Source: Bdellovibrionota bacterium (lineage in GTDB: Bacteria > Bdellovibrionota_C > UBA2361 > JBIKUX01). From it: a stretch of DNA of 56,048 nt. Within the stretch, counting starts at the first letter, position 1. Every line of letters starts with the position of its first letter. A program made the position numbers and the translations under genes. The stretch is taken from contig JBIKUX010000018.1 in NCBI GenBank assembly GCA_044347345.1, positions 1 through 56,048 on the forward strand, in the 5' to 3' direction. Shown in pieces: positions 2,029 to 51,200 of the stretch. Below the pieces are notes generated by a model. That model saw only the letters and a program-made list of their open reading frames with translations, ran no database searches and was not told the DNA's origin.

Positions 2029-2076
2029 ATAATAAAGCGTACATGGATAGCTCAACAAGTTTGCTCAATCAATGAA

Positions 2077-2574
2077 TTAATTAAGAGGTTTAGCTCCTCC
2101 TCCCGATTGAAACGGAGAAATATTCATTCCAGATTGAGCTGCATTTACTCTTTCAGCTTCTTTGGAGATTTCATTAAAGACCTCATTAATGACAGTACTA
2201 TCTGTAAGACTATTAGTATTATCCAAATTTATTTTATCTGATTCAGCACGAACATGACTAGATAAAGAAAATGAACCATCTGAGCTAATCTCATCACGAT
2301 ATTTTAAAAATGTTTCTCTCGTATCAATTAAATCCTTAGTTGCGATAATTGCCCTATTTGCCAAAACAACTGAAAAATTCTCATAGTCCCAACTTTGAGT
2401 TCGTTCTACTTCTCGCTCAATTCGCTCTCGTGGCAATCCGTACACGGTTAAAAGCACTCTTCTAGAGACTCCGAGCTCAGGAATATTCAAATTAGGCTGT
2501 GCACTTCCAAGGTTAATAACGAAACAATTCAAAAAAAAAGGAAACAAAATCAATGCGTTTCTTGGCCAATTCAT
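2077..2574 (-). CDS. Hypothetical exported protein
   Basis: 165 aa ORF with signal-peptide-like N-terminus; no family recognised. Confidence 0.5.
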   Translation of the reverse strand: MNWPRNALILFPFFLNCFVINLGSAQPNLNIPELGVSRRVLLTVYGLPRERIEREVERTQSWDYENFSVVLANRAIIATKDLIDTRETFLKYRDEISSDGSFSLSSHVRAESDKINLDNTNSLTDSTVINEVFNEISKEAERVNAAQSGMNISPFQSGGGAKPLN

Positions 2575-2640
2575 GCTACCCTTCTGATTAGATTTTTTGA
2601 GCAGGATCAGATAATTTTATTTTAAAAAGACATAAAACCA

Positions 2641-3924
2641 TTGTCTCTAACAAAATATCCACGTCTAGTTCAGTTTCTTATAACGAGTTGCTCTCTTCTC
2701 CTTCCTCTCAAGTTCTCATTATTTCTCATTCCACTATCACTGTTAACGCTTTTTTTTATTTATTCCCTAATCCGATGCCAAGAAACTCGGAATCTTATCA
2801 AGATATTTTGGAGAGAAAGCACTTGGTCTTATCTTGTATTACTCATACTTTATTTATTACTAATAACACCAGTAAGCGTAAATCCTATTAGATCGTTAAC
2901 AGCTATCAGCACAAAAATGCTTGTAGTAATGCTTCCAGCGATAATATTTTGGTGTTTTCATGCTACCTCACGGATAAATACCTTAGTCCCACGGGCTTCT
3001 CTATTAATTCCCATAATTACAGGACTAATTTTAGGGCAACTAATTGCCGCTATACATTCACTACTACAGGTTGCTTTTCCACTATATTTTCACAAATGGT
3101 TTTTAGGTGAGGTAACAGAATCAGGGCAACTCGTTATTACTATACTCGTAACCTTAGGAATGATGCATGCTCCTCTCTATTGTTCCGAAAGTTGGCTTCT
3201 AAGGAACAAAAAAAGAATAGCTATCTCTCTTTTTATTCTAATTACCGCCTTAATTATTAATTTAAAGCGCGGTCCATGGGCGGGATGTTTTGTCGGAATA
3301 CTACTTTTTGTAACTCTTGAACGAAAATATCATTCAATATTTTTTGTAATTGTAGCAACACTTAGTTGTTTATTTGTAGAACCAGTCAGACACCGTATAT
3401 CTAGCTCTTTATCTCATTTCTTTATTCATGGCGGAAGAAGTGAACTTTGGGAGATCGGTCTTTTTATACACCGCTTACTTCCACTCGGACTGGGCTTTGC
3501 CAATAGTCGCTATCTACATAAATACACCGAAGAAGTCCCCCCAGACCTGACGCATTTTCATAGCAATCCAATTCATATTCTGGCAGAAAGTGGCTGGATT
3601 GGTATGTCAATTTTCATCTGGTGGCTTGTATCCTCTCTTTACGAATTTTTTAATAATACTGAAAATGATAAATGTTCAGAAAAAAAAATCATCCTAAATA
3701 GCTACTTAAGCGCAATCATAGGATGGCAAATTGCTGGATTAGTGGAATACAATCTAGGCGATTCAGAAGTTCTATATTTAGCTATCTTTATTTTCGGTCT
3801 CGGTGAAACACTTCGTTTGCTACCGATTAAATTACCCACTAGTGACAAAAAAAATCTTTCAACAGAAAATTCAGCATCTTTATCTTTGTCTACACAGCTT
3901 CAAGTAGTATCGAACCCCAACTAA
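2641..3924 (+). CDS. O-antigen ligase family (WaaL/Wzy_C) membrane protein
   Basis: Many TM segments; KRGPW, GRSELW...PLGLG, HFHSNPIHILAESGWIG motifs. Confidence 0.8.
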   Translation: MSLTKYPRLVQFLITSCSLLLPLKFSLFLIPLSLLTLFFIYSLIRCQETRNLIKIFWRESTWSYLVLLILYLLLITPVSVNPIRSLTAISTKMLVVMLPAIIFWCFHATSRINTLVPRASLLIPIITGLILGQLIAAIHSLLQVAFPLYFHKWFLGEVTESGQLVITILVTLGMMHAPLYCSESWLLRNKKRIAISLFILITALIINLKRGPWAGCFVGILLFVTLERKYHSIFFVIVATLSCLFVEPVRHRISSSLSHFFIHGGRSELWEIGLFIHRLLPLGLGFANSRYLHKYTEEVPPDLTHFHSNPIHILAESGWIGMSIFIWWLVSSLYEFFNNTENDKCSEKKIILNSYLSAIIGWQIAGLVEYNLGDSEVLYLAIFIFGLGETLRLLPIKLPTSDKKNLSTENSASLSLSTQLQVVSNPN

Positions 3925-4936
3925 GTCCCGCTCCTACAACAGCGATAGCAATACGCTGACCAGTTACGATATCGCTCCAACGACCAGCTAATACAGCAGG
4001 AGCTCCAGCGGCTGCTTGATTGCCGAGATAGGTAACATTATGCCAATGATTAGTTGCAGGAATATTACGATTATGAGCCACTTGCTCCAGCATAGTCCGA
4101 TTAGCTTGATGCCCAATAAAGATATCCTTATTCCAATTTAAGTTATATCCTTGCTCTAATCGTTTAATTAAGCGCACTGTCTGACGAACAGAAAAATCAC
4201 GAACGGCTCTTCCATCTTGATGAAAATGCCCGAACCGATCAATTACTACCGCGCTAGCCCGCGAAGGGTCAGCCATAAAAGTAGTATCAAGCACCGATAA
4301 CCGGCCTGGATATTTTGCTGACATTACCCAAGCAGCTGCTCCGTCTCCCCATATTGCACCGTCCGTCCGATCATTATAGTTAACTATTTGAGTAAAAGTC
4401 GCTGTGCATACACAAAGGATATATTCAGGAAGATCATCACAATTGAATTGCGAAAGAAAATGCACATGCAAAGCAAATGCTGGACAAGCTGTTATTACAT
4501 CACGTATCTGCACCGATCGCTCTTCTATACCTAAAGCTTGCGCGATTCTCACTCCCTCTGATGGAAACAAGCTCCGCGGAGTACAGGTATTACACAAAAT
4601 CATTCCCACCTGCGTAGCATTGATTCCGGCATTTTCGAGAGCTTTATATGAAGCAATCTTTGCTAAATCAGTCGGAGATGCCGACGCTACTCTATGAGCT
4701 AGACGAATATCTGCATTGCGAGTTTGAAAAATATAATCGAGGGGAAGTGTGGTTACTCGCTCTTTAACTCCAATCTTTTCCTCAATCCACTGAGCTGAAG
4801 TACCTATGTTAAGCGATTCAAGAAATTCATTAGTTATAATCGTATCTGGATGCGCAGAACCCATGCCTAATATCGAAAGATGCTTCATCTGAGATCTCTC
4901 CGACGAATGAGAGTCATGTAAGGAGGAAATTATCAT
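3890..4936 (-). CDS. fabH: 3-oxoacyl-ACP synthase III (FabH-family ketosynthase), catalytic triad intact
   Basis: DVITACPAF (Cys), WGDGAAA, GHQAN (His), LGNQAAA (Asn), GAGLSWGS; alternative start ATG 4888. Confidence 0.85.
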   Translation of the reverse strand: MIISSLHDSHSSERSQMKHLSILGMGSAHPDTIITNEFLESLNIGTSAQWIEEKIGVKERVTTLPLDYIFQTRNADIRLAHRVASASPTDLAKIASYKALENAGINATQVGMILCNTCTPRSLFPSEGVRIAQALGIEERSVQIRDVITACPAFALHVHFLSQFNCDDLPEYILCVCTATFTQIVNYNDRTDGAIWGDGAAAWVMSAKYPGRLSVLDTTFMADPSRASAVVIDRFGHFHQDGRAVRDFSVRQTVRLIKRLEQGYNLNWNKDIFIGHQANRTMLEQVAHNRNIPATNHWHNVTYLGNQAAAGAPAVLAGRWSDIVTGQRIAIAVVGAGLSWGSILLEAV

Positions 4937-8617: not shown

Positions 8618-11608
8618 TTAAAAGGCTTTTCTATCCTCGTAAGATTTTCCATACAATCTTCCAATGGCATAAGTTAGAAGAAATTTTGTACCAGGCCATT
8701 GGTTCTCACTAAGAAGATATTTTTTGCCGTATTCTAGCCCTCTTGTTAAGGCAGAGTCATCTTTCTCCTTAATCGCCCCTAAAAGAAAAGCTCCAATAGT
8801 AAAATTCTTTTTATCTATCCTTCCACTCTCATCTGCAAGAATTAATTTTTCTGCTAGTCTCATCATCTCTTGCGAATTCCTCATAGATATAGCGGTAAAA
8901 AAATCAAGCTCATCCTTGACCGAAGTAACATCGATACATCTGTTCCTAGACAATTCTTGCCAAAATGATTCAACTCCGACTGATTTAGGCAGCACTGAGA
9001 TGCGTAGAGCTGCATGCCATAACAAATGTGGTAACATTTTTCTTAAAGGTGTAGCACTCTTATAATCTTGCTGATCAAGTGAGCAATTTATCAAAGCTTT
9101 AAGTGCTCTCGCTTCTAAACTAACTCTATCCACTTTTTCTTCCCCGTCACCTGCAAGATACTCCCAGAAAACAAGCGGTTCATTCGCGATAGTTAGCATT
9201 TCTGAATTTTCAGTTTTTGGATGAAGTTCAAAAATCGATGAAGGTAAATCAAACATATCTCGCGATGGCAGCTCAGATGCCAAAAGCGATACTAGTTCCA
9301 CAGCACCATGCCCGAGAAACCGCGACTTTACTGCTTGATAAGCTGCTTTAGGGAAAAATTCTGAGTGCGGAAGTGTGGAATTTCCTAGGCTCCAAGTTTT
9401 AAGAATATCTCTATCTGCCACCATTACCCTATCAATTTGGGCTCCAGTTGAGAATCCAATCCTGTTGAGGGGTTCTATCATATCGGCTGGTATTTCTATA
9501 TTTGAAAAGGAGGATGGAAGTTTTTCTTGAGAGGCTAAAAAAAGAAAATCACTTTCACCAACATTAAATAACCTAATATTAGGAAATACTGATATTAACG
9601 GAGCAACAAAAGAATGTAATGTTGCGTCATCAGTTTCGTATATTTGAAGCCATTGCCCAAAAACCCCACCTTCATTAAGACTCTGAGCTACTACCTCATA
9701 GAATTCTTGAGAAAAAAGATTTGCTACACCACTCACCCAAGGATTAGATGGCTCAGAGATAATTACATCGTATTTTTTACTACTTGCAAGAAGTGTACTT
9801 CTTGCATCATCAAAAATTAATTCAACTCGCGGGTCTGTAAAGGCTCTCTCTACTTTTTTCCCCAGTAAACGAGCTCCTTCAACCATTGCAGGCTCTATCT
9901 CAATGGTTGCAACATTTTTTACTTTTTGATGTCGTAAAACAGAATCAAGTGACATACCCGTTCCAAAACCTATAATTGCCACTTCTTTGGGATCTGAGTG
10001 TGCTAATACAGGAACAGCGCCAGTAAGAACCATGGTACTCTCATCAGCACTTGCCTTAGCATCATCTAAAGAAAGACTGCCATCAACTTTACCGTTAGTT
10101 GCTATCGAAAGAAAATCTCTAATCTGAAATACAGATACTGTCGCTGTTTTACCCGCTTTCTGGAATAAAACTTTTCTACCATTGTTTTTGACAATACGTC
10201 CATATCTAAAAACCCCGGAAGTCATTCGAATAGGGTCAAATTCAACTAAACTACAAATAAAAATTACTAAAAATACACTTGTAAAAGCCAATAATTCACG
10301 TTTTTTCTCTTGCAAAAAAACACTCTTTCGTAAAAGAATGTAGCCAACAATACAATCAATTAATGCTCCCACACCAATTAACCATTTAAGTCCTAAAATC
10401 GGAATGAGTAGATGAGTTGCAACAGCAATTCCAGCAATTGAACCTAACGTATTTGCTGCGTACAGATCGCCAATTGCTTGCTCTGAACGTCGAATTTTTA
10501 AGAGAGCCGCAGAAAAAAGCGGTAGAGTCATCCCAGCGAATACGGAAGCAGGGAGCATTACAAGTAGAGCAATTGACTGACTTATCCCATTAAAAAGAAG
10601 GTATCCCTGATTATTTCTAACAAGACCAGAGTAAAGAAAGGCCATCAAATCAAACATTCCAGAGTAACAAACCAGCGAAAGAACAGCTAATAAAGCCATT
10701 ATAAGCTGTACACTACCGGAAAGCAGAAAAGGGTCGCTTGCATCAACCCTATTGCGGATGACTAATCCCCCTAATGCAAGTCCAAAAATAAAAGCCCCTA
10801 GCATTAGTTCAAAGGCATGTAACGAGGAACCGAGTACAAGCACTAGCAACCTAATCCAACCAATCTCATAACAAAATGAGGCAAATCCAGTACCAGCCGC
10901 AGCAAGTAAAAGAGTCCGAGATTTACTCTTCTCTTCTTGATTTACAAAACTTTTTTCAACTTCTGGTAAAATACGACTGAATTCATAACCATCTCTTTTC
11001 TTTGCCACCAACCATGCTGTAAGTCCGATCAAAGTATTAGAAAAACCGGCAAAGACACTTGTAGTTGGAAGCCCAAACTCGGGAATAAAATATAAACCAC
11101 AAACTAAAACTCCAATAGCAGCTCCAATACTATTGGAGAAATAAAGCATACTTAAAATGAAGCCTGTTTGTTCCTTCTCGACTCTTACCAGTGCAGCACC
11201 GATAAGTGGGAATGTCATGCCAAGCAAAATACTTTGAGGAAGAATTAAAAGTGCACACCCACCCCATTTAACTAAATCAGCAAAAATACCTCCGCTTAAA
11301 GCGGGTAAAATCTTAACTAAAAGAACATCACTAAATCCAAGGTACAAATAATGAAAGGCTACACCCAAGCCACCTAGAGCTATTTCAATAAGCGCATAAC
11401 CCTTAAGAGGTGAATTAAGTCTAACTGAGAGCTTCCCGGCTAACCATGAACCAATAGCTAAACCGCCCATAAAAATGCCCACAACAAGAGTTTGAGCATA
11501 AGCTGCATGACCCAACACTAACTTTAAATAATGTGACCAAATTGATTCGTAAAATAGGCCGACAAAACCAGAAACTGTAAAAATTACCAAAAGAGAAAAA
11601 CGCCACAT
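8618..11608 (-). CDS. Fused multi-TM (MFS-like)/spermidine synthase protein
   Basis: Two TM repeats (SGFVGLFYE, GFASFCYE) then SAM-binding IIGFGTG, IEIEP, DDAR, YDVIISEPSNPW. Confidence 0.88.
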   Translation of the reverse strand: MWRFSLLVIFTVSGFVGLFYESIWSHYLKLVLGHAAYAQTLVVGIFMGGLAIGSWLAGKLSVRLNSPLKGYALIEIALGGLGVAFHYLYLGFSDVLLVKILPALSGGIFADLVKWGGCALLILPQSILLGMTFPLIGAALVRVEKEQTGFILSMLYFSNSIGAAIGVLVCGLYFIPEFGLPTTSVFAGFSNTLIGLTAWLVAKKRDGYEFSRILPEVEKSFVNQEEKSKSRTLLLAAAGTGFASFCYEIGWIRLLVLVLGSSLHAFELMLGAFIFGLALGGLVIRNRVDASDPFLLSGSVQLIMALLAVLSLVCYSGMFDLMAFLYSGLVRNNQGYLLFNGISQSIALLVMLPASVFAGMTLPLFSAALLKIRRSEQAIGDLYAANTLGSIAGIAVATHLLIPILGLKWLIGVGALIDCIVGYILLRKSVFLQEKKRELLAFTSVFLVIFICSLVEFDPIRMTSGVFRYGRIVKNNGRKVLFQKAGKTATVSVFQIRDFLSIATNGKVDGSLSLDDAKASADESTMVLTGAVPVLAHSDPKEVAIIGFGTGMSLDSVLRHQKVKNVATIEIEPAMVEGARLLGKKVERAFTDPRVELIFDDARSTLLASSKKYDVIISEPSNPWVSGVANLFSQEFYEVVAQSLNEGGVFGQWLQIYETDDATLHSFVAPLISVFPNIRLFNVGESDFLFLASQEKLPSSFSNIEIPADMIEPLNRIGFSTGAQIDRVMVADRDILKTWSLGNSTLPHSEFFPKAAYQAVKSRFLGHGAVELVSLLASELPSRDMFDLPSSIFELHPKTENSEMLTIANEPLVFWEYLAGDGEEKVDRVSLEARALKALINCSLDQQDYKSATPLRKMLPHLLWHAALRISVLPKSVGVESFWQELSRNRCIDVTSVKDELDFFTAISMRNSQEMMRLAEKLILADESGRIDKKNFTIGAFLLGAIKEKDDSALTRGLEYGKKYLLSENQWPGTKFLLTYAIGRLYGKSYEDRKAF

Positions 11609-21849: not shown

Positions 21850-23712
21850 TTATGGAGCAGAATGTTTCACTGCTACGCCTAACCTTCGATGATCAGCACT
21901 AATACCACGCTCTTGTGGCGAAGACACTCTAATCGGACATACAAATACATCATCGCCCGCTGATAATTTTAGTTTATCGAGAGCAACTATCTTCCACTCA
22001 CCTGAAACAAGACTAACTTTAACGAAGTTATCTCCAAAAAGAGACTTAGCTGACCTAATAGTGACTTGCTGATCTTGCCAGGGCGAAAATAAGGATAGCT
22101 GAGCTGGATTAGCCATTCTAATTTTTCCTAAACGATTAGAAATCCAACAATAATCCTGTCCTTTTTCAGGAATACACTCTTCTGTAAGAACTCTGTCTGG
22201 GCATCCATCATTAGAACTAATATCGCGGTACACATAGATTGATGGATTGCGGGTGATACGCTGAGCACCGTCTATGCCTTCAAATTTTTTTTCTAACTTC
22301 CACCCATTACCTTCAGCAAAAGGAATATGACTAACAACCCAAGAAAAACCCTCATATTTTGACATTTCGAGAGAATCAGTCTTTTTTAAAGTAACTCCTG
22401 GTATGCGTAGCACTGACGGAGCAAACCTTAATGCTGGATCCACGGCAGCGTCTTCAAGGGCATGATTTGCTGATTTTAAATACCACTCGTTAAATAATTC
22501 CCGAGTTTCAACAGTATTTCTTTTCTCAGCTCTAACCCTGAGAACGGCACCTGCTTGCTCTATCACTACCAACAAAATTAGTAGATAAGTCATAAAAATT
22601 GGTAATCTTTTGCGAATTACGGTTAATCCAAAACCTATCGAAACAATAAACCAGGGAAAAAGCACTAACATATTGCGCTCAAAATTGGCTCGCTGCATTG
22701 ACATCAACCACAAATAAAGAACTGGGAAAAATAGAAAAACAATTCCTAATCGGGGATTTTTAACCAAAGAGCTAATTGAACCAGTGACAGCAATCAATGC
22801 GGCAACTATTCCAACTCCACTTTTTCCCCACCACCTCAAATAAAAAAATAGCTGTGATAATCCAGGCTCTCCGTCATGACCTTCATGCCCAGCTATGCCG
22901 TAGTGCCAAAGTTCATAAGCAACATGATTGAGAAAAAGGGGTAATTCAGAAACGAGATATGGAGAAGAACAGATAAAAACAACCCAAGGTCCGAATAAAA
23001 CAAAAATTAAGGCTAGAGGAGAAAAATTTATTGGCCTACGGGCTAAAAGCGCGACTAAGGGCAAAAAAATGATAGGTAACGCGTTATACTTAGATCCAAT
23101 TGCCGCACCCGCTCCAATGACTGAAGTTATTAAGGCTCCCCGATGCCCACTTAGTACATAAAGCAAACTTCCTAAAAGACAGGTGCCTGCAAAAAAAGTC
23201 ATCGGTGAATCAACTCCGATAACTGGTGCCTCTGCAAGTAGTGCCGGACTTAATAACCACACCAAACAAGTACCAATTAATGGCAGCAAAGCAGAAGCGT
23301 TCAACAATGATATTATAAAAAGTGCTACTCCAAGAGCCCCAGCCATAAGGGTCACACTAAAGAGTCGGTTTGCTTTAACCATACCTGGATGACTAGATGC
23401 CAGAGCATAGCCACCAATTCCGTGCGGATCACTCGTTACCACATCAGAAATAAGTCGAGCGCGACCTTCCCGAACCTCATTGAGAAACGACACCGCAACT
23501 ACGGGCATCCGAAGATAAAAATGCAGGGAAGGTTTTAAAAAATAATGAGGATTATAATCTCCTCTTTTCACCATATTTACTACTCTGTTAAAATGATGAG
23601 CCTCATCTTCGTTGTAGAAATAAGGTAATCCACCAGAAGAAATGCTTGGCCACCACATAACTACTGATAAAATGCTTGATATAAACCAGATAAAAACAAT
23701 GTGTAATCGCAT
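21850..23712 (-). CDS. GT-C fold membrane glycosyltransferase (ArnT/PMT-like)
   Basis: N-terminal TM, NEDE acidic motif, YNPHYF..P, multiple TMs with SKYN, soluble C-terminal domain. Confidence 0.7.
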   Translation of the reverse strand: MRLHIVFIWFISSILSVVMWWPSISSGGLPYFYNEDEAHHFNRVVNMVKRGDYNPHYFLKPSLHFYLRMPVVAVSFLNEVREGRARLISDVVTSDPHGIGGYALASSHPGMVKANRLFSVTLMAGALGVALFIISLLNASALLPLIGTCLVWLLSPALLAEAPVIGVDSPMTFFAGTCLLGSLLYVLSGHRGALITSVIGAGAAIGSKYNALPIIFLPLVALLARRPINFSPLALIFVLFGPWVVFICSSPYLVSELPLFLNHVAYELWHYGIAGHEGHDGEPGLSQLFFYLRWWGKSGVGIVAALIAVTGSISSLVKNPRLGIVFLFFPVLYLWLMSMQRANFERNMLVLFPWFIVSIGFGLTVIRKRLPIFMTYLLILLVVIEQAGAVLRVRAEKRNTVETRELFNEWYLKSANHALEDAAVDPALRFAPSVLRIPGVTLKKTDSLEMSKYEGFSWVVSHIPFAEGNGWKLEKKFEGIDGAQRITRNPSIYVYRDISSNDGCPDRVLTEECIPEKGQDYCWISNRLGKIRMANPAQLSLFSPWQDQQVTIRSAKSLFGDNFVKVSLVSGEWKIVALDKLKLSAGDDVFVCPIRVSSPQERGISADHRRLGVAVKHSAP

Positions 23713-23761: not shown

Positions 23762-24301
23762 ATGACAATATCAGATGTAAATGCAACTGGCTTCCTGCAC
23801 ACTAAGCTGGAATCATTTCTTGGCTTTGTGCGTAAGTATTCATTATTTCCCTACCCATTTGTTACTGCCTGCTGCGGCATGGAATACATGGCTGTAAGTT
23901 GTGCCCACTATGATACCGACCGATTCGGTGCTGCGCTACCTCGCTTTACTCCTCGCCAATCAGATCTGCTTATGGTGGTGGGAACAGTCAATCATAAATT
24001 AGCTCCGGTGTTGCTAAGAGTCTACGAACAAATGACTGAACCTAAATGGGTGGTAGCTTTTGGAGCATGCGCTTCCTCTGGAGGGTTTTATGACAATTAT
24101 ACAACAGTGGCCGGAATCGATAAAATCATCCCCGTCGATATGTATATTCCGGGTTGTCCGCCGCGACCTGAAACAGTGATTGATGCTCTCATGCAGTTGC
24201 AATCACGAATCCGATCTTCCCATCAACCTATTTTAAACAGTGATGGTGGAACTCAGTATCATCCTACTCTTTCAGGGCTTCTAGGAAAGCCGATTGTCTA
24301 A
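23762..24301 (+). CDS. nuoB: NADH-quinone oxidoreductase subunit B
   Basis: TACCGME, PRQSDL, GACASSGG, YIPGCPPRPE. Confidence 0.93.
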   Translation: MTISDVNATGFLHTKLESFLGFVRKYSLFPYPFVTACCGMEYMAVSCAHYDTDRFGAALPRFTPRQSDLLMVVGTVNHKLAPVLLRVYEQMTEPKWVVAFGACASSGGFYDNYTTVAGIDKIIPVDMYIPGCPPRPETVIDALMQLQSRIRSSHQPILNSDGGTQYHPTLSGLLGKPIV

Positions 24302-24404
24302 AACTTAATAGATTAACGTTTACTGAGTAACGATTTCACGGTTCTTCTTTTACAGTGTCTTTATAACCTCTTCTAAAAACCGACAATTTATTTACATAAA
24401 ATTA

Positions 24405-24432
24405 AAAGGGCTTGTAGTTAAACAAGCCCTTT
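24405..24432. terminator. Probable bidirectional terminator between nuoB and pilA
   Basis: AAAGGGCTTGT-agttaa-ACAAGCCCTTT perfect 11-bp stem. Confidence 0.8.
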
Positions 24433-24451
24433 CGAACTAATTTGCTAGGAG

Positions 24452-24850
24452 TTATTGAGCGCAAGCACCTACAATTCCTTTATTCAAACTGTTCCACTCT
24501 GCACCATCTCCGTTGTTACCACACGCAGCTGAACCTTTGGTGTTTTTAACTGCAACCTCAAATGACTCTCCGTCAGCAGCGGCTGTAGGGCCCCTGGAAA
24601 CCGTAGAATGAGTCGATAAAGTAGCTCCCCGAGCCTCAGCAAGCTGTTTTGTTATCCCAGTAAAGGAACCAAAGTCAGCATAATATGCTTCTGTAGCTAT
24701 AGCATATGAACGTACATCAGACCGCGCTCGCGCATCGTAACCACGCTGTCGATACAGAGCAAACTGGGGGATCGCTATGGAAGCTAGAATTCCAATTATC
24801 GCGACTACAACTAAAAGCTCAATCAAGGTAAAACCTTTAACTCTTTTCAT
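24452..24850 (-). CDS. pilA: Type IVa major pilin
   Basis: MKRVKG/FTLIELLVVVAIIGILASIAIP class III signal peptide with E5; C-terminal Cys pair; GAGG RBS before ATG 24850 (frame also open to ATG 24904). Confidence 0.9.
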   Translation of the reverse strand: MKRVKGFTLIELLVVVAIIGILASIAIPQFALYRQRGYDARARSDVRSYAIATEAYYADFGSFTGITKQLAEARGATLSTHSTVSRGPTAAADGESFEVAVKNTKGSAACGNNGDGAEWNSLNKGIVGACAQ

Positions 24851-25099
24851 ATCCTCACCATTCTCACTTTTAACACGCTTACTTAAAACCGACCTCGACC
24901 ACATTTCTCTGTTTCACTCAATTTCTCGGTGGTATCAACTGTACTGATTACTAGTAATGCACCACATTTGGCGACCCAGATTATTTTTCCAAATGCGCTG
25001 GCTCGTCCTACGTAAACCACGAAACATAACCCTGCTTGATGATGCCCTGAATTGAAAAATTACTCAGTTCACACACTCCAGAGTCGAACGAAAATCAAA

Positions 25100-25114
25100 G
25101 CAAAGACAGTGCCA
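25100..25114 (-). promoter_or_regulatory. Sigma54 -24/-12 promoter of pilA
   Basis: Minus strand TGGCAC-TGTCT-TTGC, exact consensus. Confidence 0.88.
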
Positions 25115-25181: not shown

Positions 25182-25235
25182 CGACACTTTTTGGCAGCAT
25201 GCCAAATTTTATCTTCTCTTTGACAATTTTTGTCA
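25182..25235. promoter_or_regulatory. Probable upstream activator (enhancer) sites
   Basis: TGACA-N5-TGTCA palindrome 25221-25235 plus imperfect CGACA-N5-TGGCA (25182) and TGCCA-N5-TATCT (25200), 70-120 bp upstream of -24. Confidence 0.6.
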
Positions 25236-27305
25236 GTCAGAAAGATTTTGAGATGCAATACCAAACTTTTGGAGTCGATAACGAAGGGATCTGGGATTTA
25301 AACCAAGCAGAGCGGCCGCATGCTTCCGTGAACCTTGCCCTTCCTGAATTGCGCGCATTAGATACTTACGTTCTAAATCTTCTAAGACAGTCTCTAGCTT
25401 TATGGGAAATTCAGAAACTGTTGTTGATGATGCTAAAGATGATGTTGCTAGAGATGACTGCGAACTCCCCCCCCCCAATTGATCAATATTTTCATCGGTA
25501 GAACCTTTTTTTATATACCGCTCAGTAACAGAGGCAGGAAAATGCTCCGGTAATATAACCTCCCCACCAAAAACAAGCGCTCGCTCAAGTATATTCTCAA
25601 GCTCTCGAACATTACCGGGGTAATCATAATGTAGGAGTATATCCATGGCAGCCGGAGATATAACAGGGGAACATCCATCCCTACTCTTGCGGTATGAATC
25701 AATATAAGATTTTACTAATAATAAAATATCTCCATCTCGCTCTCTGAGAGGAGGTAAAGTAATGTGAAGTACTTCAAGTCTATAAAACAGATCTTCCCGA
25801 AATAAACCTTCACTAATAAGTTCTCGTAAATTACGATTAGTAGCAGCTAAGATTCGAACGTTAACACTAATATCTTTCTCACCGCCTACCGGTCTTACAA
25901 CTCTCTCCTGAATGGCACGAAGTAATTTTGTCTGCATTGTAAGAGGTAGTTCTCCTACCTCATCAAAGAATATAGTTCCGCCTTCTGCTTCTCTAAAAAA
26001 ACCAAGAGAATCAACCACTGCACCGGTAAACGCTCCTTTTTTATGCCCAAAAAGAGCGCTTTCCATTAAATTATCCGGAATTGCTCCGCAATTTACCGCC
26101 ACAAAAGGCCCTTTAGACCTGGAGCTTAGTAAATGAATGCCCCTTGCTACCATTTCTTTTCCAGTTCCAGATTCACCAGTAATCAGCACTGTGGCATCAG
26201 ATGTAGATACCTTTTTAACCATAAAGATAACACGCCGAATAGCCTCACTTTCTCCAATAAAATTTGGAAGTGTTTCTGAAGACTCCGACTGTTCTTCAGC
26301 TGATAATAAACGTGCTATTTCTTCCTGCTGAGCAAGCTTTCTTTCTACAATTCGAAGTGCGGTAACATCCTTAATTACATACAAAAGAGGTGATTCATGA
26401 CGCTCTCCCAAATATCGCCCAGAAATAGAAAGTACTCTTTCTCCTCCAGTTTTACTCGGAATAACAACTTCTACTGGGACAACAAATGATGGTGACAGAG
26501 GTGAAACAAACGACGCAGATGAGATAAAGGGTAAAAATATTTCTCTAATTGAACGGCCAATTAAATGCTCCACTCCGTACCCAAGTAACTGCTCAACTCC
26601 TCTATTTACACTTGTAATAACAAAATCTATGCGAGCAGTAATTATTCCATCAGAAACACCATCGATTATATCTCGCTGTCTTAGACCTAAACTTTCGAGA
26701 TCTGCACGGGTTTGCTCAACTCTTTCACGCTCGTACCTAGCGGTACCAGATAAATAACTTATTCCAATAGTTGCAAGTACCAACGACGACAACAGACCAA
26801 CTAATTGTACAAGTATTCCTCCCTGAGGCTCTTGTAGAAATGTAAAGATAAAAGGCTGGGAGATAGCTCTATCAATCAAACCAATAGCTAAATATGCATA
26901 AAATAAACAAGCAATCAGCCCCACACCAAGTGCAAGATTGCGAGGCAATATTACCGCAGCTACCATTCCCTCGAGTAAATAAAGCAATAAAAACGGACTC
27001 TGAGGCCCTCCCGAGAGATAAACGATCCAAGAAACTTGAAAAACATCAAAGATACATCCAAACGCATTTAACCATAATTTAGAAACTTCTCGATAAGAAT
27101 ACCAAAACAACGCGACTGATCCGCAAAACATACATATCGCAAGGCATAGATGAAAAATCACCTGCCCCTCAGCAAACTTACCGGCTCGCAATAAGATAGA
27201 GACCGTAGCTGCAACTGTTAAAAAAATTCTGAAAAAACTTGCGAATCTGGAAGTACGCTTTGTTAAACTACTCTCTACACCTCCATCCGAAATAGGATGC
27301 CGCAT
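25233..27305 (-). CDS. Membrane-anchored sigma54 enhancer-binding protein: PilS-like TM sensor + PAS + PilR-like AAA+/HTH fusion
   Basis: About 6 TMs, PAS-like region, GESGTGKE, GAFTGA, FFDEVGE, FREDLFYRL, YPGNVRELEN, Fis-type HTH; occupies the pilS-pilR position. Confidence 0.85.
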   Translation of the reverse strand: MRHPISDGGVESSLTKRTSRFASFFRIFLTVAATVSILLRAGKFAEGQVIFHLCLAICMFCGSVALFWYSYREVSKLWLNAFGCIFDVFQVSWIVYLSGGPQSPFLLLYLLEGMVAAVILPRNLALGVGLIACLFYAYLAIGLIDRAISQPFIFTFLQEPQGGILVQLVGLLSSLVLATIGISYLSGTARYERERVEQTRADLESLGLRQRDIIDGVSDGIITARIDFVITSVNRGVEQLLGYGVEHLIGRSIREIFLPFISSASFVSPLSPSFVVPVEVVIPSKTGGERVLSISGRYLGERHESPLLYVIKDVTALRIVERKLAQQEEIARLLSAEEQSESSETLPNFIGESEAIRRVIFMVKKVSTSDATVLITGESGTGKEMVARGIHLLSSRSKGPFVAVNCGAIPDNLMESALFGHKKGAFTGAVVDSLGFFREAEGGTIFFDEVGELPLTMQTKLLRAIQERVVRPVGGEKDISVNVRILAATNRNLRELISEGLFREDLFYRLEVLHITLPPLRERDGDILLLVKSYIDSYRKSRDGCSPVISPAAMDILLHYDYPGNVRELENILERALVFGGEVILPEHFPASVTERYIKKGSTDENIDQLGGGSSQSSLATSSLASSTTVSEFPIKLETVLEDLERKYLMRAIQEGQGSRKHAAALLGLNPRSLRYRLQKFGIASQNLSD

Positions 27306-27331: not shown

Positions 27332-28552
27332 TTACTGGACTACTGAACCCATTTTAAATATTGGGAGATACATTGCTACAACTAAACTACCAATTATTAT
27401 TCCTAAAACTAAAATCATAATTGGTTCAATGAGCTGTTTCATAGCACCAACCGCGTTATTTACTTCATCTTCATAAAATTCTGCAATTTTTGAAAGCATG
27501 GCATCAAGAGCTCCTGTAGCATCTCCTACCCCAATCATTTGAGTGACCATTGGAGGAAAAACTATAGACTGAGTTAATGGCTCAGTGATTGATTTTCCTT
27601 CGGATATAGCGACCCTACATCTTTGGACATCTTGCTCTACAACTTTATTACCAGCAGTCCGAGAACATATATCTAACGCGTCAAGAATTGGAACTCCAGA
27701 ACTAAGCATAGTACTCAAAGTTCGTGCAAACCTAGCCACTGCTACTTTTTTAATTATATCTCCAAAAACCGGCAATCTAAGCGCCAAAGGATGTATTACT
27801 TCTTTCCCTCTCGGCGTTTTTAAGAATTTAAAAAATGCTATGATTAATCCAAACATAACACCAAAAAAGATCATCCAATAATTAACAAAAAAAGAGCTAA
27901 TATCCATCACAATACGCGTTGGTAGTGGCAAACTACTGCCAAAATCAGCAAAAAGATCCGCAAAAGTAGGGATAACAAAAATCATAAGAATTGCGGTGAC
28001 AGCAACGGCAGCTGATATTACAACAGCTGGGTATATCATTGCTGTTTTTATTTCACGTTTTAATTTCATCGCTTTTTCAAGATGCAAAGATAAACGTTCG
28101 AGTATGGTATCTAAAATCCCTCCTTTTTCTCCAGCATCTATCATATTAACGTAAAGGTCATCAAAGGCCTTTTTTTCTTTATTCATTCCCTCGGCAAGGG
28201 TTCCGCCTGTTTCAATAGTCTCCTTAACAACTCCAAGGGTTTTTTTCATAGCAGAATTTTCACTCTGCTTTGATAGAATATCTAAAGCTTGGACAAGCGG
28301 TAAGCCAGCGTCAATCATAGTAGCTAGCTGACGAGTAAAGATTACTATATCTTTCCCTTTCACCCTTGGGCTCATTCCAGGAATCTTAATCTCCATCTCA
28401 AGACCTTCCCCTTTTGGCTTAATTTTGTTTGCCACAGGGGAGATATTTTTTTGACGAAGCTTATTAAAGACTTCTTGGCGACTTTTCGCTTCTATTTCAC
28501 CAATTATCTTTTTTCCGGCAGTGTCTTTTCCTTCCCAGACGAAGACGGCCAT
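27332..28552 (-). CDS. pilC: Type IV pilus inner-membrane platform protein PilC
   Basis: FTRQLATMIDAGLP, AMIYP, LSSGVPIL, EPIMIL...MYLPIF. Confidence 0.95.
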   Translation of the reverse strand: MAVFVWEGKDTAGKKIIGEIEAKSRQEVFNKLRQKNISPVANKIKPKGEGLEMEIKIPGMSPRVKGKDIVIFTRQLATMIDAGLPLVQALDILSKQSENSAMKKTLGVVKETIETGGTLAEGMNKEKKAFDDLYVNMIDAGEKGGILDTILERLSLHLEKAMKLKREIKTAMIYPAVVISAAVAVTAILMIFVIPTFADLFADFGSSLPLPTRIVMDISSFFVNYWMIFFGVMFGLIIAFFKFLKTPRGKEVIHPLALRLPVFGDIIKKVAVARFARTLSTMLSSGVPILDALDICSRTAGNKVVEQDVQRCRVAISEGKSITEPLTQSIVFPPMVTQMIGVGDATGALDAMLSKIAEFYEDEVNNAVGAMKQLIEPIMILVLGIIIGSLVVAMYLPIFKMGSVVQ

Positions 28553-28673
28553 AGCATTCTCCTAAACTTTACCAATTGCCAGTCGGTATTTTCAAAAAAA
28601 ATCTTAAGATATTCCTTACATATATCCGTCGGCGAACAAAGAAACGGAATTAAGAAATTTTTATCTAACTTTT

Positions 28674-30371
28674 TTAATCCGCTACCGTCACCCTCAAAAC
28701 CTCTTCTACAGTAGTTACCCCTTGCCTTAGCCTCTTTAAAGCCGAAGCTCTTAGAGTCATCATTCCAAGCTTCGCCGCTTCTCTCTTTAATTCCGCTGCT
28801 GAAGCACCACTTAAGATGAACTCTCTTAGTTCATCGAACATAGGCATAACTTCATATAATGCAATCCGACCTTTATAACCGGTGCCAGCACATTTCTGAC
28901 ATCCCTTCCCCTGCTTTACAGTCATTCTTTTGGCTTCAAGTGCTGGAATACCGATATTTACCAGAACCTCTGGATCTACCTTTACGTCTTCAGCACAATC
29001 CGAACACACTTTGCGAGCAAGTCGTTGTGCTAAAATTAAATTTATTGATGATGCGACAAGAAAAGGTTCAATTCCCATATTAAGAAGACGATTAATTGTA
29101 GCTGCCGCATCATTTGTGTGCAGAGTCGAAAGTACTAAATGCCCAGTAAGAGATGCTTTTATGGCGATTTCGGCTGTCTCGTAATCTCTAATCTCACCCA
29201 CCATAATCACATCCGGATCTTGCCGTAAAAAAGCTCTTAGCGAAGCAGCGAAATTAAACCCTATATCATCATGCATCTGCGCTTGATTAATTCCAGGTAG
29301 ATTAAATTCTACTGGATCTTCTGCTGTGCTTATGTTCGTCGTAACCTTGTTTAACTCAGCAAGAGCTGAATAAAGAGTAGTTGTTTTACCGGAACCAGTA
29401 GGACCTGTAACAAGAACCATCCCATGTGGTCTTGAAATACTTTCCTTAAAATACTTGAGCTGCTCCTCTTCAAAACCTAATTTGGTCATATCTAATTGTA
29501 AATTAGACTTATCCAATAGACGCAGTACAACCTTCTCACCAAAAAGAGTAGGTAAAACATTAACTCTAAAATCCATTTCATTTTTACTGCCAAGCTTTAG
29601 CTTAATTCTCCCATCTTGAGGTAACCTCCTCTCAGCAATATCCAGTGACGCCATTATTTTTATTCTTGACGTTATTGCATTTTTTAATTTAACAGGAGGT
29701 TTCATTATCTCATACAATACACCATCAATTCTGAACCTAACTCGAAAAGTTTTTTCATAAGGTTCAATATGTATATCTGATGCATTTTTTTTAATTGCAT
29801 CGGTTAAAACAGCATTAACAAGCTTTACTACTGGAGCATCCTCTGTTGCTCGCTCAAGCTCACTAATGTTTACTACCTCGCCAGTATCAACAACTTGTAC
29901 ATCATCATCAGCAAGATTTCCTATGATGTTCTCATATGAAACCGAATGCTCATAATAAGTCTCATGAGCTGTACGTATTTCACGCTCTGAAGCAACTACA
30001 ACAAAAATATCGAGACCTGTAACAAATTTCAGATCGTTTAAGGCTGCGACATTTGCCGGATCAATTGTAGCTATAGTTAAAGTCTGTTCTGTTCTTTTAA
30101 TGGGTATTAAAAGATGTTTTCGGGCGATGTTGGAGGGAACAAGCTCAATAACACTTCTTTCAATTTCAAGTGATTGAGGTGAAATAATTTCAACATTAAA
30201 TTGTTGACTTATGAATGCAACCAAATCCTCTTCGCTAATAAATCCCAAATCTAACAAATGAGATAAAAGCGTGCCTGAACCCGTTGATTTCTGTGCATCT
30301 AGACCCTTATTAAGTTGCTCTTTTACTAGGAGACCTGACTTAACAAGAAGTTCCCCAATTCGTAATGACAT
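28674..30371 (-). CDS. pilB: Type IV pilus assembly ATPase PilB
   Basis: MshEN-like RIGELLV N-terminus, ASDIHIEP, GPTGSGKTT, LRQDPD, TGHLVLSTLH, tetracysteine motif. Confidence 0.95.
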   Translation of the reverse strand: MSLRIGELLVKSGLLVKEQLNKGLDAQKSTGSGTLLSHLLDLGFISEEDLVAFISQQFNVEIISPQSLEIERSVIELVPSNIARKHLLIPIKRTEQTLTIATIDPANVAALNDLKFVTGLDIFVVVASEREIRTAHETYYEHSVSYENIIGNLADDDVQVVDTGEVVNISELERATEDAPVVKLVNAVLTDAIKKNASDIHIEPYEKTFRVRFRIDGVLYEIMKPPVKLKNAITSRIKIMASLDIAERRLPQDGRIKLKLGSKNEMDFRVNVLPTLFGEKVVLRLLDKSNLQLDMTKLGFEEEQLKYFKESISRPHGMVLVTGPTGSGKTTTLYSALAELNKVTTNISTAEDPVEFNLPGINQAQMHDDIGFNFAASLRAFLRQDPDVIMVGEIRDYETAEIAIKASLTGHLVLSTLHTNDAAATINRLLNMGIEPFLVASSINLILAQRLARKVCSDCAEDVKVDPEVLVNIGIPALEAKRMTVKQGKGCQKCAGTGYKGRIALYEVMPMFDELREFILSGASAAELKREAAKLGMMTLRASALKRLRQGVTTVEEVLRVTVAD

Positions 30372-48211: not shown

Positions 48212-51200
48212 ATGACTTCAAAAAATAAAGTTCTTGCCCCTTCAAACTTTGAAAATCCAATAACAACGCCTCGAGGCAAATACTTAAGTATTCAAGAAGC
48301 AAGTATCAATAATCTTAAAAATATCTCAGTAGAACTTCCTCACGATACAGTTGTAGCAGTAACTGGGCTATCAGGTTCCGGAAAATCTTCACTTGTATTC
48401 GATACTATATATGCTGAAGGCCAACGACGTTATGTTGAAACATTTTCTCCGTATACACGACAATTTCTCGATAAAATCCGTAAACCAGCCGTACTGCGCA
48501 TAGATGGTGTTCGACCCACTATCGCTATACACCAAAGATCTCGTGTGCATAGTGCAAGATCAACAGTAGGTTCTTTAACAAATTTACACGATTATTTAAA
48601 ACTTTTATGGGCTAATTTAAGTGAAGCTTCATGTATCTCATGTAATACCCCACTTCCTCGTTGGACAGCATCTCGAATTACTATAGCGATACAAAAGCTT
48701 GCTTTACTGCGAGATCCACAAGATACAATTCTTATTTGTGCTCCATATCTAATTTCATCACCTTCAAATCTGACTGAAGAAATTGAAAGATTACGAGTTT
48801 TAGGTTTTTCTAGATTTTATAATCAAACAAAAAAAGCTATATGCTCGCTAGATGATAATGAAATTATCATCTATGACAATAAAATTGCCTCACCCTTGTA
48901 CATTGTTATTGAACGAATAAAAGGAAGGTCGCTTGCCGAGAATAGAATATCTGAAGCTGTAGAACATGCGCGTCAGCTCGGACAAAATAAAGTATCATTA
49001 TTTGTACTGAATACTACAAGCTTACTAGAGAGCGTTCATTTTGAAAATAAAAATACCTGCGTAAGTTGCCATTCAGAAAATCCATCTTTAGCAATCCCAC
49101 ATCCGCATCTTTTTACATTTTCTCATCCATTAGGAGCTTGTCCACAATGCAAAGGTTTTGGCAGGCTTTTAGAGATTGACGTTAATAAGTGTATTCCTGA
49201 TCCTACTCTTAGTATCCGTGAAGGAGTAATAGCATGCTGGAATGGTGCAAGTGCCTCATCTGAAAAAAAGGCACTCATCAAATTTTGTTCCAAAACTGGC
49301 ATATCACTTGATACTCCTTGGTCACTTCTTCCCAAAATCCAGCGCGATCAGATCCTTAATGAAAACACTCGCTCTTTTTGTGGAGTTCTTCCGTGGTTTG
49401 AGTGGTTAGAAAAAAAAACTTATAAAATGCATGTAAGGATTTTTCTAGCTCGGTATAGATCTCCACGAATATGTAATACATGCAACGGCACCCGCTTTTC
49501 GCAAGCCTCAATGAATTATAGATTGGGTAATTTAAAAATAAATGAAGCATCAGATATGCCGATAGGAGAGCTTGAAAATTGGCTGTCCATTACTTTAAAA
49601 AGTCTAAAGGAACTTCCACGCGATCTAAAATTTGTGGTTGAAGCTACATCCCTCAAGTTACAATTCTTATCGAAGCTTGGTTTAAATTATCTTACTTTAA
49701 ATCGACCCTCTCGAACCTTATCTGGTGGAGAAATGCAAAGAGTTAATCTAGCTGCTGCCCTTGGAACTGAGCTTACATCTATGCATTTTATTCTTGATGA
49801 GCCATCTATTGGATTACACCATCGTGATACCAACCAACTAATTTCAGTTATTCAAGAACTATCAGCAAAAGGTAATTCAATTACCCTTGTGGAACACGAT
49901 TTAGGCGTAATATCTTCCGGCGAATATGTACTGGAACTAGGACCAGGCTCAGGGTCTAAAGGTGGATCAATTATAAATTTTTCACCGACAGCAGAATGGC
50001 AACGACCATCAATTCCTAATTATTCTGCTACACACACCACCAACATTCCATCTCAAAAAACCCCTTGGCTACACATTAAAAATGCTTCGGCTCGTAACTT
50101 AAAGAATATCTCCGTTTCAATTCCCTTAAATACTTGTTGCGTACTTACTGGTGTCTCAGGAAGTGGGAAAAGCACTTTTGTGCATGAAGCTCTCGTACGA
50201 GCCTGGCAAATGAGCCGTAATCATCAACAACAATGCAATCATAAATCAATAACAGCAGTAAATGTAAATTTAGTCGAAGATTTGCTCGCTGAAAATAAGG
50301 ATGATGCGCCTTTAATAACTGAACCTATAAATAATTTAAGCGCGATACCCGTAGTGGACGGATTTGAACACATTAATGAGCTTACCGTAATTGATCAAAA
50401 TCCTCTTACAAAAAGTCCTCGCGCTAATATAGCCACTTATACTGGTCTATGGGGTCACTATAGAACTGCCTTTGCATCAAGTGAAAATGCAGTTTCCCGC
50501 GCTCTATCTCGCTCATCCTTTTCCTTTAATGTTGAGGGAGGTAGATGTCCTAATTGCAAGGGCGCAGGTGCAACAAAGGAAAGTATGCAATTTCTTAGTG
50601 ATGTAATTATACCATGTGAGATATGCAACGGAGAGCGCTTTCTTCCATCAGTACTGTCAATAACCTTGGATGGCAAATCTGTCGCTGATGTTCTAAAAAC
50701 CCCAGTAGGTGAGTGCTCTTTATTTTTTGATAGACTGCCTAAAATTAAAGCAACTGTAGACTTACTTTGCTCGCTTGGCCTTGATCATCTTACCCTCGGT
50801 CATTCATTAAGTGAGCTTTCTGGAGGAGAAGCTCAACGACTAAAGTTAGTTCCCTTTATAACTTCTGGCTCTAATAATGGGCACACTCTTTTTATCTTTG
50901 ATGAGCCAACTACAGGGCTTCATTTGCACGATGTTTCTCGCTTAATAAATGTTTTTCGTTTTTTACGAGATTCAGGTCACTCAGTTCTTTGCGTTGAACA
51001 CAACCTATCACTTATAGACGCTTTTGATTGGGTAATTGACTTTGGACCTGAAGGAGGTTCAAAGGGAGGTTATATACTTGCTGAAGGGACTCCTCAAGAG
51101 TTAGCTAACCGAAGCGATCTTGCTACTGGGTTAGCTCTTTCTGAATGGCGTAATGAATGTATAAAAATGCATAAAAATTACGCTAAATCATCTGGTGCTA

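Follow-up and report, generated by a model that had tools for sequence, protein, structure and literature searches.

How can a sensor in the membrane be coupled to a sigma54 activator when the domains for phosphotransfer between the two are missing? This question is raised by a 56,048-nucleotide (nt) contig of a Bdellovibrionota bacterium (GenBank JBIKUX010000018.1; the whole analysed stretch is referred to below as the window), where the slot between the type IVa pilus gene pilC and the pilin gene pilA is taken by a single open reading frame (ORF) of 690 residues with an ATG start, P0001. A previous reading made from the DNA letters only (the sequence-only reading) had singled out this ORF as a collapsed PilS-PilR system; the ORF is present as described, and is located on the minus strand, which that reading had left unstated. 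As judged from profile alignments, P0001 consists of the sensor of PilS, i.e., six transmembrane (TM) helices, a PAS domain and the signalling helix, joined directly to the output of PilR, which comprises an AAA+ domain and a Fis-type helix-turn-helix (HTH). Transcription of the pilin gene is probably switched without phosphate transfer in this system, and we favour, with moderate confidence, a reading in which the fused sensor-activator switches pilA by conformation, with unassembled pilin as the probable input.

Architecture of the fused protein and its junction

Pfam recognises the PAS, sigma54-activator, AAA+ lid and HTH domains of P0001 in this order (Table 1), with Sigma54_activat (PF00158) on residues 350–515 scoring 229.9 bits at a cut-off of 20.2. 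The 6TM_PilS family matches residues 12–140 with 25.4 bits, slightly below its gathering score of 27, and scores 30.5–50.1 bits in nine of ten related locus proteins. Response_reg, HisKA and HATPase_c are not found in P0001 at E ≤ 0.01. The order of domains proposed by the sequence-only reading, devoid of His-Asp phosphotransfer modules, is borne out by these assignments, and the motifs that it quoted are all found in P0001: LSGGPQSPF (residues 97–105), VERKLAQQEEIARL (320–333), Walker A GESGTGKE (377–384), GAFTGA (424–429) and Walker B FFDE (446–449). Across 71 relatives, GESGTGKE, GAFTGA and the D448-E449 pair of Walker B show no variation or a conservation of at least 90%, and Foldseek relates the AAA+ domain to those of FleQ, NtrC1 and FlrC with a TM-score to target of about 0.9. 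By its AAA+ motifs and HTH, P0001 is to be classed as a sigma54 enhancer-binding protein, and by its domain content it falls outside both the PilS kinase and the PilR response-regulator families as these are defined.

An AlphaFold (AF2) model built from the 71 relatives has a mean predicted local distance difference test (pLDDT) score of 85.6. The model and hydropathy agree on six TM helices, at residues 11–40, 45–71, 76–97, 104–119, 122–144 and 162 to about 190, connected on the outward-facing side by loops of just about 4, 6 and 17 residues; because the number of helices is even and the domains downstream are cytoplasmic, the N-terminus should reside on the cytoplasmic side. TM6 extends as a single helix into the PAS fold (residues 220–313), which is followed by a helix at 315–335, a disordered stretch at 336–353 (pLDDT below 50 at 339–343), the AAA+ domain at 354–601, a second disordered segment at 603–633 and the HTH at 637–680. 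Arg26, Asp87, Ser103 and Pro104 are conserved in the fusion family, as are Arg21, Asp83 and Ser99 in PilS, such that an arginine in TM1, an aspartate in TM3 and a GGxxSP loop are common to the fusions and PilS. A public gene prediction for the same protein, P0002, begins at Met59 (632 residues), and would lose TM1 and part of TM2. The start that gives 690 residues is supported by the conservation of TM1 and Arg26, which are at least 90% conserved in the 71 relatives.

The limits of the two parental parts were drawn with hhalign, by aligning the 71-member fusion family to a set of 13 PilS kinases, which includes five encoded beside pilC, and to four PilRs linked to pilC/pilS. The alignment with PilS has a probability of 100 (E 1.3e-47, 322 columns), where residues 12–333 of P0001 pair with residues 2–310 of the PilS from L015, a Bdellovibrionota locus with separate genes. 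The phospho-histidine of L015 PilS is residue 319, and the homology stops at residue 333 of P0001, 9 residues short of the position of this histidine. The alignment with PilR likewise has a probability of 100 (E 3e-110), and residues 341–679 pair with L015 PilR from residue 135, i.e., right after the receiver, which leaves residues 334–340 as the sole stretch that matches neither parent. The N-terminus that the sequence-only reading had called PilS-like is by these alignments PilS-derived rather than unrelated to PilS, and the activator half is PilR-like, as had also been suggested. Since P0001 lacks HisKA and HATPase_c, and its PilS homology ends before the histidine, it is not a histidine kinase.

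At the level of residues, the PilS junction reads DVTxLRxxExxLxxQEkLAAxGxLAAGIAHEIRNPL, and the corresponding region of the fusions DVTxLRSxEEQLxxQERMARLL, followed by about 15 variable acidic, proline or glycine residues and then by F[VI]GES, with which the AAA+ domain begins. DVT and F[VI]GES are spaced by 36–40 residues, and by exactly 38 in 8 of 11 sequences. The junction had previously been placed at 26265–26345, which corresponds to residues 321–347 and hence to the signalling helix and the flexible linker. Classic pilS and pilR genes are adjacent and co-oriented, so that exactly this protein would result from one in-frame deletion that starts at the DHp helix and extends to where the receiver ends. 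From the alignments we infer that such a loss, from the DHp histidine of PilS through the receiver of PilR, gave rise to the fusion.

The relation of the AAA+ module to PilR can be followed in identities and in a tree. The module of P0001 is 54.6% identical to that of L015 PilR and 51–55% identical to those of other fusions, compared with 42–50% for Zetaproteobacterial PilRs and 35–45% for unrelated activators. A quick tree of 42 AAA+ cores groups 36 fusions with L015 PilR, apart from the Zetaproteobacterial PilRs (SH-like approximate likelihood-ratio test, SH-aLRT, 92); the support that it gives is weak because it contains only two outgroups and L015 PilR sits on a long branch. Synteny agrees with the AAA+ and HTH modules being orthologues of those in PilR.

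Table 1. Positions of the fused gene, its encoded domains and the flanking pilus features in the window
Feature	Position	Strand	Evidence and remarks
Fused pilS-pilR gene (P0001)	25233..27305	-	690 residues; Pfam, profile alignments, AF2 model
Six-helix TM sensor domain, residues 11–190	26736..27275	-	Hydropathy; AF2 helices with pLDDT 73–97; 6TM_PilS
Cytoplasmic PAS domain, residues 209–316	26358..26681	-	PAS_9 at 219–316, 31.6 bits; PAS_8 also matches; PAS fold in AF2 model
Signalling helix, residues 315–335, homologous to the PilS PAS-to-DHp helix	26301..26363	-	Alignments and AF2 model
Acidic low-confidence linker, residues 336–349	26259..26300	-	Variable sequence, conserved length; AF2 pLDDT, spacing
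Sigma54-activator AAA+ domain and lid, residues 350–600	25506..26258	-	Walker A, Walker B and GAFTGA intact; Pfam (AAA_lid_14 at 521–600), conservation, Foldseek
Fis-type HTH, residues 641–681	25263..25385	-	HTH_8 at 641–681, 45.8 bits
Candidate enhancer (upstream activating sequence, UAS), palindrome TGACAAAAATTGTCA	25221..25235	.	TGACA-N5-TGTCA match; overlaps stop codon of the fused gene
Sigma54 promoter TGGCAC-N5-TTGC (-24/-12)	25100..25114	-	Located about 250 nt before the start of pilA
pilA, type IVa major pilin	24452..24850	-	Likely start MKRVKG/FTLIE; longest ORF from 24904; N_methyl 38.3 bits
Terminator-like hairpin after pilA	24404..24433	-	On the same strand as pilA
pilC, platform protein	27332..28552	-	T2SSF 218 bits; 26-nt gap to the fused gene
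pilB, type IVa pilus assembly ATPase	28674..30371	-	TIGR02538 776.8 bits (cut-off 675.65); T2SSE, MshEN

Distribution and genomic context of the fusion

An exhaustive search with the N-terminal 345 residues of P0001 against 1.84 billion representative proteins gave 5703 matches at E ≤ 1e-3, the best 150 of which were listed. Pfam was run on 31 listed single-stretch matches together with P0003, setting aside 118 listed multi-PAS matches. Half of the 32 scanned proteins (16) are full fusions of 647–687 residues with the same order of TM, PAS, AAA+ and HTH regions; the rest comprise nine classic PilS-type kinases (TM, PAS, HisKA and HATPase), two AAA+ fragments, four TM/PAS fragments and one protein without a family. 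A word-index search with the N-terminal half matched only P0001 itself and one relative. From the search with residues 340–690, the best 120 matches were analysed. Precomputed domain assignments place 6TM_PilS in 87 of these 120, and a receiver, HisKA or HATPase in none. Classified with family hidden Markov models, 104 of the best 120 have the TM, PAS and AAA+ regions, i.e., the whole layout for which the sequence-only reading had recommended an architecture search, ten have TM and AAA+ regions, and six are fragments or other proteins.

The ten shorter proteins (P0169, P0184, P0204, P0209, P0223, P0240, P0245, P0250, P0258 and P0263) are of about 570 residues. In these the PAS domain is cleanly absent, and the signalling helix connects the PilS-type TM domain with the AAA+ domain. 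They occur in at least three places of the AAA+ tree, which suggests that PAS was lost repeatedly.

The same junction is shared by relatives down to 33% identity, which rules out an assembly artefact or a private deletion. Rather than the one-off new system that had been anticipated, the fusion represents a large family that is already deposited, with at least 104 clusters at 90% identity, and that is kept by many Bdellovibrio-like bacteria not in culture. The database labels include "two-component system response regulator PilR (NtrC family)", "sigma 54-interacting transcriptional regulator" and "PAS domain-containing protein"; as no receiver is present in the best 120 matches, the designation as response regulator is wrong on that point. 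The nearest clusters in the ESM Atlas are one automatically named "PilS-like transmembrane/AAA..." (68 members, most commonly from Binatota) and a Bdellovibrionota cluster of 54 members.

At the DNA level, a degenerate pattern for the junction motif identified 88 loci in GTDB representative genomes, a set that does not contain the species of the window, and 28 of the 88 have a tblastn match to one of the proteins of the window. The fused gene directly follows pilC in all 13 fused loci (L010, L031, L033, L035, L043, L046, L051, L061, L065, L069, L071, L074 and L080), which derive from 13 species genomes, mostly metagenome-assembled genomes (MAGs). Nine are from Bdellovibrionota (one of them Oligoflexia); Binatia and, by label, Dadabacteria account for one each, and the last two are unclassified. 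The encoded PilC is 70–75% identical to that of the window in 11 loci and 56% identical in the Binatia locus, values that put the window within or close to Bdellovibrionota. Separate pilS and pilR genes follow pilC in the same slot in L015 and in four Zetaproteobacterial loci (L042, L050, L078 and L079), which agrees with the sequence-only reading; L075 is a partial copy of this classic arrangement, cut off inside pilS.

Ten of the 13 fused genes were verified with Pfam as full length, and the L069 protein is identical to P0036, which was also verified with Pfam. Twelve of the 13 are uninterrupted as far as seen, with 11 at full length and L031 cut by the contig end. The remaining one, at 1027–3098 of L010 in a Bdellovibrionales MAG, is present as two overlapping ORFs (286 and 404 residues) with the break in the PAS region. 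This is a frameshift error or a pseudogene, in a locus that otherwise retains pilC, the sigma54 promoter, the palindrome and pilA at their usual positions. The split gene would fit a decaying pilSR remnant without a regulatory role. A related possibility is a constitutive activator with a TM domain that serves only for membrane or polar localisation, without any gating, and the PilS TM domain has reportedly been linked to polar targeting (Ethier and Boyd 2000, by title). Against both stands the strong conservation of the TM motifs, PAS, signalling helix and all ATPase motifs across the family down to 33% identity, as well as the uninterrupted state of 12 of the 13 loci; moreover, conserved charged residues in the sensor would be needless for anchoring alone. 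We therefore regard a remnant or a pure localisation role as highly improbable.

In the window, pilC directly follows pilB, with no pilT in between (27332–30371), and the best NCBIfam model for its PilC is the Myxococcus-type PilC (509 bits, below the cut-off of 700). The available text of PMC4237445 gives the order pilB-pilT-pilC for B. bacteriovorus HD100, unlike the window. A different arrangement is seen in three further Bdellovibrionota loci (L009, positions 954–3935, L027 and L067), which have a more distant pilC-like gene with 38% identity. It is followed by a 586-residue PAS histidine kinase with the same junction motif, and in place of pilR there is a protein of 404–415 residues with a signal-peptide-like start and no Pfam family.

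Control of pilA and the proposed switch

The sigma54 promoter between the fused gene and pilA is the only perfect match to TGGCAC-N5-TTGC in the 56-kb window. The corresponding downstream region was compared in 13 loci, i.e., the window and 12 of the fused loci, leaving out L031 where the 3' end is missing. A same-strand promoter that matches at 9–10 of 10 positions is present in seven of these (the window, L010, L046, L061, L065, L071 and L080); L033, L035, L051, L069 and L074 have none, and in L043 the match is on the other strand only. A type IVa pilin gene is next downstream in five of the 13 (the window, L010, L046, L065 and L071), all of which carry the promoter, and the mature N-terminus of the pilin (FTLIE, with Glu5 kept) is invariant across the five. 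No sigma70-like promoter above shuffle expectation was found before pilA, and the window contains no other activator, kinase or receiver.

The palindrome at the end of the fused gene is located 121 nt upstream of the promoter. It is the only TGACA-N5-TGTCA match in the window at up to one mismatch, which on its own is not above chance (1.48 expected), and the same palindrome occurs 108–121 nt upstream of the -24 element in four of the seven promoter-bearing loci (the window, L010, L061 and L080). In P. aeruginosa, PilR binds TGTC repeats. The 200-nt regions that precede the seven promoters, some of which include the coding end of the fused gene, contain TGTC 24 times, compared with 10.1 ± 3.1 expected, a count reached by none of 2000 shuffles that keep mononucleotide composition only. 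A perfect 7+7 palindrome, TTTGGCA-N3-TGCCAAA (25190–25206), sits between the candidate enhancer and the promoter; it was considered as a second enhancer and rejected, as no conservation was found by eye in the other loci. The pilA leader (24851–25099) is about 240 nt long, compared with about 90–230 nt in related loci. No Rfam family reaches its gathering score in the window, and the one match in the leader (E 0.46) is far under the cut-off.

With these elements, the HTH of P0001 would bind the candidate enhancer at the 3' end of its own gene, and the AAA+ domain would spend ATP on opening the sigma54 promoter, which follows at a distance of 121 nt and from which pilA would be transcribed. Since there is neither a kinase nor a receiver, gating of the AAA+ domain by the sensor must be conformational, most likely through a parallel dimer that the signalling helix forms as in kinases. 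In NtrC1 and DctD, a coiled-coil linker holds the AAA+ domains from ring formation, and by analogy the parallel dimer in P0001 may keep its AAA+ domains from assembling.

The 15–18 flexible residues in front of the AAA+ domain leave room for a different use of the same parts, in which the TM and PAS regions merely anchor an active AAA+-HTH unit at the membrane, and cleavage of the linker releases a soluble, PspF-like activator. Such a release would not call for a membrane-bound hexamer on DNA, and the linker (residues 336–353) is disordered and variable in sequence. Isolated AAA+ modules of several activators, including NtrC1, DctD and PspF, are constitutively active, which would also fit. On the other hand, the length of the linker is tightly conserved (36–40 residues between the flanking motifs, mostly 38), which suggests that its geometry is constrained and speaks against a tether that is simply cleaved; the window has no protease gene linked to the locus, and no conserved cleavage motif is evident in the family. 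Release by proteolysis is thus judged improbable, and gating by conformation is retained as the preferred mode of control.

The input is probably sensed inside the membrane, because the sensor has almost no periplasmic surface, and because PAS was lost in ten relatives that kept the TM domain. The TM1 arginine, TM3 aspartate and GGxxSP loop shared with PilS point in the same direction. By analogy with PilS, the signal would be the pool of unassembled pilin, such that abundant pilin holds P0001 in the off state and a depleted pool releases it. In P. aeruginosa, according to the available text of PMC6058289, PilS can contact PilA directly through its six TM segments, which provides for autoregulation, and PilR becomes hyperactive when PilA is lost. 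The identity of the signal is the weakest step of the proposed mechanism, since 6TM_PilS domains also serve other signals and the fused gene is only sometimes beside pilA. Arg24 of PilS and Glu5 of the pilin are reported to matter. A complex prediction for the TM domain (residues 8–216, 71-row alignment) with mature PilA (5-row alignment) scored 0.00 relative to a mark of 0.32, and is uninformative either way.

The same fusion and output could respond to an input other than pilin, such as redox or quinone state, the lipid or envelope state, a PAS ligand, or contact with PilC. 6TM_PilS domains also serve RegB and the ammonia sensor GrtK (PMC12918730, available text), a well-conserved PAS domain is kept in 104 of the best 120 relatives, and the gene is always beside pilC and only sometimes beside pilA. 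However, the homology of the sensor extends over 322 columns, beyond the Pfam domain, and specifically to pilC-linked PilS. Furthermore, the ten losses of PAS, in at least three places of the tree, always spared the TM domain, and the TM1 arginine and TM3 aspartate shared with PilS are retained. A non-pilin input therefore appears unlikely, though it is the strongest of the alternatives.

Several observations weigh against switching of pilA by unassembled pilin. The use of the 6TM_PilS domain in RegB and GrtK shows that the domain is not tied to pilin. The fused gene is always beside pilC, but 8 of the 13 loci lack a pilA next downstream, and in six of these eight no sigma54 promoter is seen on the same strand over about 950 nt. 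The enrichment of TGTC carries the limits of its shuffles and regions given above, rpoN is absent from the 56-kb window, and the AAA+ tree was made by a quick method with two outgroup activators and a long-branched Bdellovibrionota PilR. Unlike in NtrC1, flexible residues separate the helix and the AAA+ domain in the AF2 model, which makes the geometry of gating uncertain. Moreover, we know of no studied precedent for a ring of six subunits, with 36 TM helices in all, that would engage DNA while located at the membrane. In its complete form, where a membrane sigma54 activator reads unassembled pilin through the PilS-derived six-helix domain and responds with assembly of the AAA+ ring and opening of the promoter at the membrane, without phosphotransfer, the model is accordingly a tentative one.

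Among the other features of the window, a lone NuoB-like gene (23762–24301; Oxidored_q6, 179 residues) lies immediately beyond the pilA terminator in the opposite orientation, with no other complex I genes visible nearby. A 620-residue ORF two genes downstream of pilA (21850–23712) has no Pfam or NCBIfam match. Further away, a 1853-residue ORF (48212–53773), about twice as long as an ordinary UvrA, combines several ABC/P-loop ATPase sites with the DNA-binding and interaction domains of UvrA, and a 996-residue ORF (8618–11608) has a spermidine-synthase-like domain at residues 531–651 only.

Comparison with known systems

The fusion can be recognised as a variant of a known system that has so far gone unstudied, and is deposited under automatic names. 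No description of a PilS-PilR fusion or of a membrane-integral sigma54 activator was found in the full-text literature, with subscription journals and supplements outside the scope. In B. bacteriovorus HD100, pilS and pilR are separate (PMC4237445, available text), and the accessible parts of two further sources report the two genes as "absent" in Bacteriovorax marinus SJ (PMC6060248) and Peredibacter starrii (PMC13147790). Fused genes labelled as PilR or under generic names may explain some of the reported absences in Bdellovibrio-like predators.

The family can be regarded as a natural experiment in signalling design, in which a two-component pair was welded together, its phosphorylation domains were removed, and the product was kept over long evolutionary distances. 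It lends itself to direct tests of three points: whether all the information for switching an output resides in the membrane domain and signalling helix of PilS, how a ring-forming AAA+ ATPase can be controlled by a sensor that is dimeric, and whether a membrane-anchored sigma54 activator can work. If the proposed mechanism is true, P0001 would be a naturally collapsed two-component system, where the sensor and signalling helix of a histidine kinase gate a quite different output machine, and the pilA locus would be transcribed at the membrane, possibly at the piliated pole.

One of the closest known counterparts is the PilS-PilR system of Pseudomonas aeruginosa, Myxococcus xanthus and Geobacter, represented among the present loci by L015, L078 and L079. 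The fusion occupies the same slot after pilC, and shares the sensor with six TM helices, PAS domain and signalling helix, the AAA+ and HTH output, and a sigma54-dependent pilA promoter. It differs by the absence of the DHp histidine, HATPase and receiver, which makes a kinase/phosphatase switch impossible, and by the covalent connection of sensor and activator, which turns the activator into an integral membrane protein.

The soluble sigma54 activators with PAS, GAF or V4R domains, e.g., DmpR, NifA and the Desulfovibrio PAS types, likewise control the AAA+ domain within a single polypeptide and free of phosphorylation, and the available text of PMC4641369 on such one-component activators makes no mention of a membrane-integral form. 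Whereas these proteins are cytoplasmic, the fusion carries a six-helix membrane sensor that originates from a histidine kinase.

With NtrC1 and DctD (PDB code 1ny5), the fusion shares a dimerising helix in front of the AAA+ domain and a similar fold, and it is likely that a dimer blocks ring assembly also here. Unlike in these proteins, the helix in the fusion derives from a kinase rather than from a receiver, about 15 flexible residues precede the AAA+ domain, and the controlling domain is in the membrane. ToxR, CadC and TcpP are membrane-bound one-component activators of the sigma70-type winged-helix class, which have no AAA+ ring and do not use ATP. Their sequences and folds are unrelated to those of the fusion, but the principle is alike, in that a DNA-binding activator stays in the inner membrane.

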